NCBI GenBank assembly: GCA_000004695.1
Contig: CM000155.2
Span: 3,328,001 to 3,392,000 of the forward strand
Direction of reading: 5' to 3'
Length of the DNA: 64,000 nucleotides
DNA from: Dictyostelium discoideum
Taxonomy: Eukaryota
The position numbers were made by a program, and so were the translations under genes. Of this stretch, positions 20,760 through 24,734 are shown piece after piece (position 1 is the stretch's first letter; each line of letters opens with the position of its first letter). Under the pieces are notes generated by a model, which was given only the letters and a program-made list of their open reading frames with translations, had not been told where the DNA came from and searched no databases.

Positions 20760-23700
20760 ATGGATTGCTTCAGAGGATCATTTTCAAAAAATAATAATAA
20801 TATTAATAATAATAATAATAATAATAATATTAATAATAATAATAATAATTTAAGCTCAAATATTGAAAATAATAATAATAATAATAATAATAATAATAAT
20901 AATAATAATAATAATAATAATAATAATAATAATAATAATAGTTTAAGAATGAATAATCCATTCGATTCCCAAGGAGATCAAAAAATTACGTTACAACCAA
21001 TGGACGATATTAATTTTAGATCAAACAGTAGTTCAAGTTTTAGTGAAAATAATATTCAGAATAACAATAACAACAACAACCCGCTGGTTAATGCAAATAA
21101 TATTAGAAATAATATTAGTATAAATAATTTAATTAATCATAATGAAGATAGAACAGATAATAATAATAATAATAATAATAATAATAATAATAATAATAAT
21201 AATAATAATAATAATAATAATAATAATAATAATAATAATAATAATAATAATAATATAATTAACAATGATGAAAATAATAATAACACTACAACCACACAAA
21301 CTACTACAACAACTACAACAACAACAACTAATTCAGCAACGAATAATAATGTTAATAAAAATAATAATGGAAATAGGGGAACTTATTTTCCAATTAATAC
21401 AAGAAACATTTTAAATAGAAATAAAAAGAATTTAAATGCAAATGGATTAATTTTTGGTAGGCAAAAAATTTTAAAAGCAAATATAACACCACCACCAACT
21501 AATAATACTGAAGATGATATTATTAATACTTTACAAAATGGAATAAATACTAGTAATGAACCATCATCATCATCATCTTCATCATCTTCTTCATCTTCTT
21601 CTTCTTCCTCACCATCTAATATTAGTAATGAACCACAATCTTCTTCTTCTTCAACAACAACAGCAGTACATGTCAACAATCATCATGTTCAACGTTTTAA
21701 AAAGTCAAAGTATCACTTGAGTGGTTTAACCAAAGGATTTATGAGAAGTGGTGGTAATTCATATAATGGTAGCTTTGAAAATAATTTAGGTAATATTACT
21801 GGTATTACTGGCGGTATTATTGGTTCACTACCAGGTAGATTATCAATGAAAGAGAGTAAACATAGGCTAAATGATTTTTATGGTGGAAGTGGTAGTGGTA
21901 GTGGCAGTGGTAGTGATAGTGATAGTGGTACTGATAGATATTCCAAATTTCTAAATAGTTTTTATGAAGATTTTGATGAAGATAATGAAGATGAAAACGA
22001 TGACTTATTTAACCATGTTTCATCCTCATCATCTCATAAAAAACCAAATAAAAACAACAACAATAATAATAAATCAAAGAAAAATAATATAACTACGCCA
22101 CAATCATCAGCATCTTCATCATCATCTTCATCAAATTCAACAAACTCAAATAATAATGATAACAACAACAACAACAACAACAACAACAACAACAACAACA
22201 ACAACAACAACAACAACAACAATAATAATAATAATAATAATAATAATAATAATAATAATAATAATAATAATAATAATAATAATAATAATAATAATGTAGT
22301 GAATAGATCAAAAGATATTAATATTTATGAATCATATTCAAATAATAATGTAGTTTATAATGGTGGTAATAGTTATAATAGATTTTATTATAATAATAAA
22401 AATCAAGAACATAATGATATAAACTATAAGAATTGTGTAAATAATAATATTGGTAGTGTTCCAAGGGAAGTTTGGATACATATTCTAAGCTTTTTAAATG
22501 AAAGAGATTTATTAAATATTTCAATGGTTGATTCATTCTTAAATGAAATTAGTCAAGATAATACATTATGGAAACCACTTTATATAAAGAAATGGAATGT
22601 AATAACTTTACCTCATAAAAAAAGAATTTCAATTGATAAAAGTCAAAATCAAATTAAAAATTCAATTTCTTTTAATGATTTTACAAACTATTACCAAGAT
22701 GATAAAAATGAATTATTTAATAATAATAATAATGAAAATGATACAACAAGTACAAGTACAATAAATAATAAAGCAACAACTACAACTACTACAACATCAA
22801 CAACAACAACAACAACAACAATGGATGATATTAATTTAAATAATAATTTAAATAACTTTGTACATAAAATATTTAAACCAAAATTAAATATTTATCAAAT
22901 TAATAATGAATCTAATGAATCTTTTATGAAGAATTTACCAATTTGGAAATCATTATATAGAGAGAGGAAATTGATTGTAAAGGATGGTGGTATGGAAGAG
23001 TTTTATCATCTATTGGAGACACTGATTGCCTATCCATTGGAATTCAATGCTAAAGCTGTGATGACAATGTATACAATCGTATTCCAATTATGTATTGTCA
23101 ATTATCGTATGATGAATTATATGATACCACCAATGGATTTATATAGAATGATAGTTGAATGTTGTCATAATCATCTAATGAAAATTTTGAATGAATCAGT
23201 TGTATTTGATGATGGTCCACAATTAATTCAATATTATTTACATCATTGGAATAATTATATTCATTCAATTAAACGTGTAACTATAGTTTTCAGTTATTTT
23301 CATCGTGATTGGGTTTCAAAACAATCTGATGATGTTTTATCAAGATCTTCAATCATACCTTATAATATTAAAGGTTATTCATATTGGTGGTCAAAAATGT
23401 TAAGTGGTGATCCTCCAACAGTATCATCAACACTAGCAGCACTAACATCAGCAACAATTCAACAAAATAATCAAAATAATCAAAATAATCAAAATAATAA
23501 TAATAATAATAATAATAATCAAAATAATAATAATAATAATAATAATAATAATAATAATAATAATAATAATAATAATAATAATAATAATCAAAATAATATA
23601 CCAGTACCACCTCCACCACCACCAACTTCAAATGATCCAGCTAATATTGTACATTTAACACCAATGATGGCAAGAGGATGGTTTTCAGTTTTATTCTCAC

Positions 23701-24734
23701 AATTGGAATTAGATAAAAATGATAATTTAAATTTCTTTATTCAACCACCTCAATCACCAAAATTAAAACCACAACCATTGCCATTTAATATTCGTAGTAA
23801 TACAATATCATCAAATAATGGTAGTAATGTACCAACCACTGTTACTACAACTGCAACTTCAACTCCTATACCAATTATTATTGACATACCAATGCATGAA
23901 ATTAGTCCAATTTCTTCCTCTTCTTCTTCTTCTTCTACTCCTTCTACTTCATCATCATCAAAAAGTAATAATAATTATAATTATGGTTATAAAAAACCAA
24001 ATGAATCACAAATTAATAGAATTTTGAAATCTTTAGATAAATGTTGTGAAACTGGTGAATTTTATTTAATTAGTGGTTTATTAGTATCAATTTTACAATT
24101 ACAAGATTTTTTATTATCAATTGGTATTGATGAAGCTTCAACAAATTATCCATATAATCAAAATCACCATAATCATGGTGGTGGTAATGGGAATGGTGGA
24201 GGAGGAGGTACAAATGTTAATGGTTCCAATAATAGTGGTAATCAAAATTCTTCACAAAATTCAATTTATTATCCAATTTATAGTATTTTAAAATCATTTA
24301 ATCCAAATAAACAACAATGTAATAGGGAATTAATTGATAAAATTCAAACATATGAGAGTATGAATGGTATTGAATTTTCAAGTAATAATTCAAATGTTGG
24401 TGGTGGTGGATATCAACAAGCTCATCAATTTGTACCAGAATTTAATTTAAGAAGATCAACAATGGAATCTTCAATTCGTATATTTAATTATCATAATCAT
24501 AATCAACAGAATAATGCATTCACTCAAACAAATCATTATGTATCTGTACCAAATTTATCACCAAGCAATAGTACCTTTAATTTAAAGAATGAATGTCAAT
24601 TTTGTAATGTTTTCGCTGTTAATCCACCAACTTTTGGTGATGAAAAATTGAATAGAGTTGTAAAGAAATGTTTTTCACTTTTACTTTTAATTCATAAAGA
24701 TAAATCAAATAAAATTTTAAAACAACAATTTTAA
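20760..24734 (+). CDS. F-box protein with a cullin-N-terminal-like segment. It is 1324 aa with extensive Asn/Ser/Thr low complexity.
   Basis: An F-box motif lies at about 22456-22580 ([42 protein letters not shown]). At about 22990-23405 a colinear series of motifs matches cullin first-repeat helices. [11 protein letters not shown] matches [30 protein letters not shown] matches [53 protein letters not shown] matches [43 protein letters not shown] matches LALVTWRDCLF. It is a single uninterrupted ORF. Confidence 0.8.
   Translation: [1324 protein letters not shown]

Follow-up and report, generated by a model that had tools for sequence, protein, structure and literature searches.

We analyzed a window of 64,000 nucleotides from Dictyostelium discoideum (contig CM000155.2, positions 3,328,001 to 3,392,000 of the forward strand) and focused on one of its genes, DDB_G0293826. 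In SCF (Skp1-cullin-F-box) ligases, the scaffold (CUL1), the adaptor (Skp1), and the receptor (F-box protein) are separate subunits. The product of DDB_G0293826 almost certainly joins an F-box to a module derived from the N-terminal repeat of CUL1, which brings the F-box of a receptor and the docking repeat of a scaffold together in one conserved protein, an unexpected recombination of SCF parts. Given that this repeat is the part of CUL1 that docks on Skp1, the protein may be a natural mimic of the scaffold, a reading that we weigh below. The features that carry the finding are the following:

20760..24734, + strand: whole gene DDB_G0293826, a single-exon open reading frame (ORF) of 1324 amino acids (aa).
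22449..22595, + strand: F-box, aa 564-612, with a PF12937 match at aa 565-609; kept in the orthologues.
23043..23342, + strand: block with secure homology to CUL1, aa 762-861, equivalent to helices H2-H5 of cullin repeat 1 (human CUL1 ~40-153).

The ORF is present exactly as claimed by the earlier note, which a model had made from the sequence alone: in the ORF list of the window it runs through 1324 codons without interruption. It starts with AAAATG behind ~400 bp of nearly pure A+T spacer and ends with TAA, followed by another A+T-rich spacer. Given this continuity and these flanks, DDB_G0293826 is a real and simple single-exon gene. The window has a G+C content of ~20% and contains many poly-Asn and poly-Gln coding tracts, as is typical of Dictyostelium; in the protein itself, the Asn content is 26%, and ~366 of the 1324 residues lie in low-complexity tracts rich in N, S, T, Q, G, or P. 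The identity of the gene was taken from an identical F-box string in a published alignment of predicted Dictyostelium F-boxes (PMC9485057 supplement). An exact-sequence look-up of the 1324-aa product found no entry in a collection of 15 billion proteins, and a homologue search with the same product returned other species only, with no D. discoideum entry.

For the F-box, the Pfam F-box-like model PF12937 matched aa 565-609 (nucleotides ~22452-22586) with 31.2 bits in the whole ORF and 37.1 bits in the isolated segment, at a cut-off of 24.3 bits, which bears out the range of 22456-22580 proposed earlier. The second F-box model, PF00646, scored the segment at 20.5 bits, exactly at its cut-off of 20.5. 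The F-box begins with "VPREVW", and the orthologues also match the F-box Pfam model. With a family hidden Markov model scoring above its curated threshold, DDB_G0293826 is classified as an F-box protein and is predicted to bind Skp1.

The cullin similarity lies far beyond chance. When aa 711-904 were scanned on their own, the Pfam Cullin model PF00888 matched at an E value of 5.6e-6 (25.9 bits, profile positions 17-100 of 620), a score below the Pfam gathering score of 33.2. The full-length ORF gave no match to PF00888 in the Pfam scan, because low-complexity tracts and the split of the module mask it, and across the five aligned family sequences the model reached E < 1 in only one. Searches with the sequence and with profiles of its own family were stronger. 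In a phmmer search of aa 711-904 against all Protein Data Bank (PDB) sequences, the significant matches were cullin-1 chains only (E values of 4e-5 to 2e-3), reproducing with HMMER the pairing of this protein stretch with CUL1 that the earlier note had given. A profile of the family core from five sequences retrieved CUL1 from the PDB at an E value of 1.3e-9 (41 bits, human CUL1 residues ~29-153). We also ran the five-species core profile without prefilter against 1.84 billion cluster representatives at a threshold of E <= 1e-3. This yielded 46 matches, namely 6 family members and 40 others, 39 of which are Pfam cullins. Finally, HHalign aligned the family core with these 40 non-family matches over 99 columns (98.7% probability, E value of 2.8e-16), and from this span we set the secure block at aa 762-861 (23043-23342). 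The earlier note had named E > 0.01 as the level at which the cullin assignment should be given up; the PF00888 value is far smaller, and family profiles and the fold search described below strengthened the assignment further. Its cullin segment, 22990-23405, stands insofar as the secure block lies inside that range, with the two reservations that the Pfam score falls below the cut-off and that only about one repeat is covered.

Judged from these alignments, the similarity is to CUL1 in particular and not to the cullin paralogues. CUL2, CUL3, CUL4, and CUL5 chains are all present in the PDB, and none was found at E <= 10 in the family-profile search. The consensus of the non-family matches from the large search is a CUL1 N terminus, ending in "YLNRHW.KRE.DEG". 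Two full-length matches that we sampled are CUL1 orthologues, scoring 680-715 bits to CUL1 versus ~410-430 bits to CUL2, and their alignments to the paralogues start only after helix H2.

To place the gene among its relatives, we collected orthologues. The homologue search found them in D. purpureum, Polysphondylium violaceum, Acytostelium subglobosum, and Synstelium polycarpum, and the search of 1.84 billion representatives added DFA_01164 of Cavenderia fasciculata and a transcript of Ceratiomyxa fruticulosa (400 aa), so that the family outside D. discoideum covers six species, five dictyostelids and Ceratiomyxa. The four proteins from the homologue search are annotated as F-box or hypothetical proteins only, and their sole precomputed Pfam domain is F-box-like. 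In the alignment they lack the N-terminal 560 residues and the internal poly-Asn and poly-Thr tracts of D. discoideum, and the conserved order is F-box, [LI]WK.LY.ERK lead-in, cullin-like block, "WW", VHLTTMMARGW..LF helix, C-terminal helical segment, and CxxC motif. The cullin-like core has a mean column identity of 58% across five aligned sequences, with dozens of invariant residues. The gene models of D. purpureum, P. violaceum, and A. subglobosum place the F-box and the cullin-like block within one protein, and in C. fruticulosa both domains lie on a single assembled transcript. Together with the continuous ORF, which has no stop or intron-like break, this agrees with the proposal of one joint protein rather than two separate transcripts. 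Since the fusion is common to Dictyostelia and Ceratiomyxa, it is old, predating the split between Dictyostelia and Protosporangiida, and it is under strong constraint. Two gene models are incomplete: that of S. polycarpum (P0004) has no F-box and no H2-H3, and that of C. fasciculata DFA_01164 (P0005) is without H1-H3 and has unrelated sequence there. These missing pieces are probably mispredicted introns or exons and not real losses.

Around the F-box and the secure block, the alignment defines the remaining parts of the protein:

20760..22448, + strand: N-terminal ~563 aa, largely poly-Asn/Ser/Thr and without conservation in the orthologues.
22596..22940, + strand: linker between the F-box and the cullin-like module, 115 aa, partly poly-Thr/Asn, poorly conserved.
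22941..23042, + strand: family-specific conserved lead-in, aa 728-761, with the second [LI]WK.LY copy and a helix where cullin H1 would be.
23343..23411, + strand: conserved segment behind H5, aa 862-884, which has an invariant "WW" and is partly aligned to cullins.
23412..23639, + strand: insertion, an Asn/Gln-rich run followed by poly-Pro, aa 885-960, absent from all orthologues (alignment columns 401-480).
23640..23714, + strand: conserved helix, aa 961-985, at the position of the cullin helix after H5; marginal sequence match to cullins, predicted helical in the models.
24012..24134, + strand: conserved C-terminal helical segment, aa 1085-1125; no significant PDB match.
24591..24686, + strand: C-terminal Cys motif "CQFCNVF..NPP...", aa 1278-1309.

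The linker, 115 aa in DDB_G0293826, measures 64-130 aa in the orthologues. The lead-in lies outside the HHalign match, and only a few cullin matches align from profile position 18-30. The insertion of ~75 residues interrupts the cullin-like module after the "WW" segment and ahead of the conserved helix that comes next, and it is a low-complexity expansion tolerated within a folded domain. A motif [LI]WK.LY...[KW] occurs twice in the protein, once at the end of the F-box (22566-22595, aa 603-612) and once directly before the cullin-like block (22941-22970, aa 728-737), and both [LI]WK.LY copies are also found in the D. purpureum, P. violaceum, A. subglobosum, and Ceratiomyxa sequences. The second copy may have been left over from a duplicated F-box helix, or it may form a helix that packs against the cullin-like repeat.

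We then considered how much of a cullin the protein retains. Cullins carry a stalk of three tandem repeats, and here the sequence match ends after about one. Neither the neddylation domain PF10557 nor the C-terminal part of PF00888 was matched by Pfam in the ORF or in the orthologues. The segment at aa 1085-1125 was a candidate for cullin repeat 2, given a resemblance to CUL1 ~170-205, and we rejected it: a six-sequence profile found no cullin in the PDB (the best match was unrelated, with an E value of 0.45), and in 17 long cullins the local matches that scored best lay scattered, with negative scores. With no C-terminal cullin match and this failed test for a second repeat, the protein holds roughly one CUL1-type repeat, without the half that binds Rbx1 and is neddylated, and is not itself a cullin. 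At the far C terminus, the family Cys motif reads C-x2-C-N-x-F-x3-PP-x2-C-D-E-x-M-N-[RK]-V-x2-K-C. Only its CxxC is kept in all orthologues that have the region, the third Cys being Gly in D. discoideum and the fourth Leu in Acytostelium, and aa 1278-1309 have no Pfam or PDB match; given this variability and the lack of matches, a four-ligand zinc site is doubtful.

Structure prediction was consistent with the sequence result. Two template-free AlphaFold2 models were of low confidence (pLDDT 48.8 and 47.0), owing to shallow alignments. For the first, which covered the core as encoded in the window, poly-Asn insert included, with 5 sequences, a Foldseek search against the PDB gave nothing below an E value of 0.87. 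The fold search matched a cullin structure over ~168 residues with a model of low pLDDT, and CUL5, CUL3, CUL5, CUL2, and CUL4B followed as the next matches. Sequence and predicted fold thus agree that the segment adopts the helical fold of a cullin repeat.

The part of CUL1 to which the block corresponds has a known function. In cullin repeat 1, helices H2 and H5 make up the interface with the adaptor, which is conserved between orthologous cullins but not between paralogous ones (PMC3597819, citing Zheng et al. 2002). CUL1 deltaN53 and the Y42A/M43A mutant lose SKP1 binding, and SKP1 is still bound by N-terminal fragments of CUL1 from which the Rbx1-binding part is missing (PMC4737497); the docking role that the earlier note had ascribed to this region is in agreement with both papers. 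In DDB_G0293826, the equivalent residues are V767 (Y42 of CUL1), M768 (M43), Y771 (Y46), T772 (T47), Y846 (Y139), R849 (R142), and W851 (W144). The positions of human CUL1 that are shared with the family are the following:

H2: M43, Y46, T47, V49, and C53.
H3: L88 and Y89.
H4: L116, F118, Y119, W123, and Y126.
H5: K131, N134, Y139, R142, and W144.

M43, Y46, and T47, together with a Phe at the position of Y50, are invariant in all family sequences that cover H2, including the distant Ceratiomyxa. Our interface argument draws only on the Y42/M43 mutagenesis and on the statement about H2 and H5. A match that is specific to CUL1 and includes H2, which cannot be aligned among the paralogues, is the pattern expected from conservation of the adaptor interface, and we infer from the sequences that the repeat may still recognize the Skp1/F-box surface.

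Taken together, these observations led us to propose a tentative mechanism. As in other F-box proteins, the F-box would bind Skp1 at its C-terminal part, and the H2/H5 face of the tethered CUL1-like repeat would cover the CUL1 docking surface on the same Skp1/F-box unit. A flexible linker of 64-130 residues would give binding in cis a large entropic advantage, and the outcome would be a self-capped Skp1 complex from which CUL1 is excluded. This complex might act as an auto-inhibited receptor, which would have to be opened before SCF assembly, or, alternatively, as a non-SCF Skp1 complex with an output through the conserved C-terminal helical and Cys region. That the block occupies the cullin-binding surface of Skp1, most likely in cis because it is tethered to the F-box through a flexible and unconserved linker, is a serious possibility that we hold at somewhat below even confidence. 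A precedent for the occupied surface exists in CBF3, where a non-cullin partner sits on the Cul1-binding surface of Skp1 in an F-box/Skp1 complex (PMC5771398). The wider proposal, of a natural mimic of the CUL1 N terminus that either clamps Skp1 on both faces, as a switchable receptor or Skp1 sink, or captures free Skp1/F-box modules, is one that we put forward with rather more reserve.

Several points weigh against this proposal. The equivalent of Y42 is V, M, or L, that of H143 is Asp, and in Ceratiomyxa an Arg stands in place of W144. A buried core could account for many of the shared residues, including the aromatics W123, Y119, and Y89, which would perhaps be kept for folding alone. A single cullin repeat may not suffice for Skp1 binding, and even the binding of the protein to Skp1 is putative. 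Both AlphaFold models are of low confidence (pLDDT 47-49), the first without meaningful fold matches. Finally, Boland et al. 2022 (PMC9485057) have DDB_G0293826 in their list of predicted F-box proteins but not among the proteins recovered with Skp1 by coimmunoprecipitation (co-IP), an absence that may depend on expression level and is not evidence against binding.

The substitutions and the possibly structural role of the shared residues would fit a conventional SCF receptor, in which the CUL1-derived repeat no longer binds Skp1 and forms, with the C-terminal helical and Cys region, a substrate-binding domain of a protein that assembles with Skp1-CulA-Rbx1. The layout, with the F-box first and the interaction domain C-terminal to it, is that of standard F-box proteins (general knowledge; PMC9485057 introduction). 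On the other hand, the similarity points to CUL1 alone and extends through H2, a pattern that conservation of the adaptor interface predicts (PMC3597819), and with an intact interface the tethered domain would out-compete CulA for its own Skp1. We regard the conventional receptor as possible, if on the unlikely side. The same evidence for interface conservation that suggests self-capping applies in equal measure to a receptor or bridge acting in trans, whose own F-box builds an SCF while the CUL1-like block captures cullin-free Skp1/F-box units, either for ubiquitination of surplus F-box proteins or Skp1 or for linking two Skp1 modules. Target selection by the domain behind the F-box is the usual logic of F-box proteins, and the long flexible linker would allow reach in trans; however, a competent interface on a flexible tether should favor cis binding unless this is sterically prevented, any partnership with other F-box proteins is hypothetical, and Skp1 co-IPs did not recover this one, which makes this reading improbable. 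An artefact, be it chance similarity from biased composition, a fusion by gene model or assembly, or a decaying cullin pseudogene fragment in the ORF, might be suspected from the subthreshold Pfam Cullin score that is lost on the whole-ORF scan, the extremely A+T-rich genome, the Asn-rich protein, and the low-confidence models, but it is effectively refuted, and very improbable, given E values of 1e-9 to 1e-16 from bias-corrected profiles, cullins as 39 of 40 non-family matches among 1.84e9 proteins, the many invariant residues of the orthologous cores, the same two-domain polypeptide in the Ceratiomyxa transcript, and the continuous ORF.

Among the large ORFs of the window that we scanned with Pfam, 8 of 10 had no match. 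One with matches, at 7312-9072 (+), encodes 586 aa with a BTB/POZ domain at aa 13-124 (E value of 1.3e-15), a bromodomain at aa 305-389 (3.2e-23), and a BET/ET domain at aa 517-576 (2.5e-11); a chromatin reader of the BET type that carries the fold of CUL3 adaptors, a BTB domain, at its N terminus is an unusual combination. Another, at 61682-63511 (-), encodes 609 aa with a class-3 lipase domain (PF01764, E value of 1.6e-11). The upstream neighbor of DDB_G0293826, at 18216-19790 (+), encodes 524 aa that begin with a structured-looking N terminus, MNGVDINSNLDSIKAKAEDIRNLLL, and continue with poly-Gln/Pro tracts of great length; Pfam matched nothing in it.

The control of receptor access to the limiting scaffold is under active study and involves CAND1 exchange and neddylation and, in Dictyostelium, oxygen-dependent Skp1 glycosylation. 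We know of no description, in any organism, of a dedicated and genetically encoded SCF-assembly regulator of the kind considered here. If the protein is indeed a CUL1 mimic, it would be such a regulator, with a role comparable to that of CAND1 or dominant-negative CUL1. Were the repeat still to bind Skp1, the protein would be a natural competitor of CUL1, and SCF ligases would be regulated at a further level or Skp1 would form complexes of a new, cullin-independent class; were binding lost, a scaffold fragment would have been reused as a receptor domain, and a family so far known as "F-box only" would be better annotated. The organism is tractable, with existing Skp1 and CulA reagents and interactome methods, making the hypothesis directly testable.

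The F-box, the cullin repeat, and the F-box annotation of the gene were already known, and it is their combination that appears to be new. The architecture is confined to one lineage and would surprise an SCF specialist. In line with the earlier note, which knew of no described F-box protein with a cullin-N-like part, we found no description of it in the Dictyostelium F-box catalogue, in a review of Dictyostelium cullins, in full-text literature searches, or in the names and Pfam assignments of the orthologues. Full-text search of the library at hand found no mention of DDB_G0293826 in the text of papers, the gene being named in the supplement of PMC9485057. That catalogue (Boland et al. 2022) lists it as a predicted Fbxo-type F-box protein with an empty "other domain" column, to which the cullin-like module is an addition.

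Compared with CUL1/CulA/Cdc53, whose N-terminal domain has three repeats, the DDB_G0293826 protein has about one, and it is without the four-helix bundle, the alpha/beta domain, the winged-helix B domain, and the Rbx1-binding or neddylation site. Its cullin-like block stands downstream of an F-box, has an aliphatic residue in place of Tyr42, and scores below the Pfam Cullin gathering score. In being an N-terminal piece of CUL1 without the Rbx1-binding half, it resembles the engineered dominant-negative fragments (Dn-CUL1 1-452, cited in PMC4737497), which bind SKP1 and sequester SKP1/F-box modules (PMC4737497). Unlike these, the block is natural, far shorter, and covalently joined to an F-box, and its Skp1 binding is putative. 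The proposed complex would also resemble yeast CBF3 (Ctf13-Skp1-Cep3; PMC5771398), where an F-box protein holds Skp1, another surface takes the Cul1 face, and the assembly is independent of cullin; there the occupant, Cep3, is unrelated to cullins and acts in trans, whereas the candidate occupant here is cullin-derived and on the same chain. A conceptual precedent for merging separate subunits of cullin-RING ligases into one chain is given by the BTB-Kelch and BTB-BACK receptors of CUL3 (PMC3597819), which have no sequence relationship to the present protein: in those receptors adaptor and receptor are fused, while DDB_G0293826 joins a receptor motif to a piece of the scaffold.

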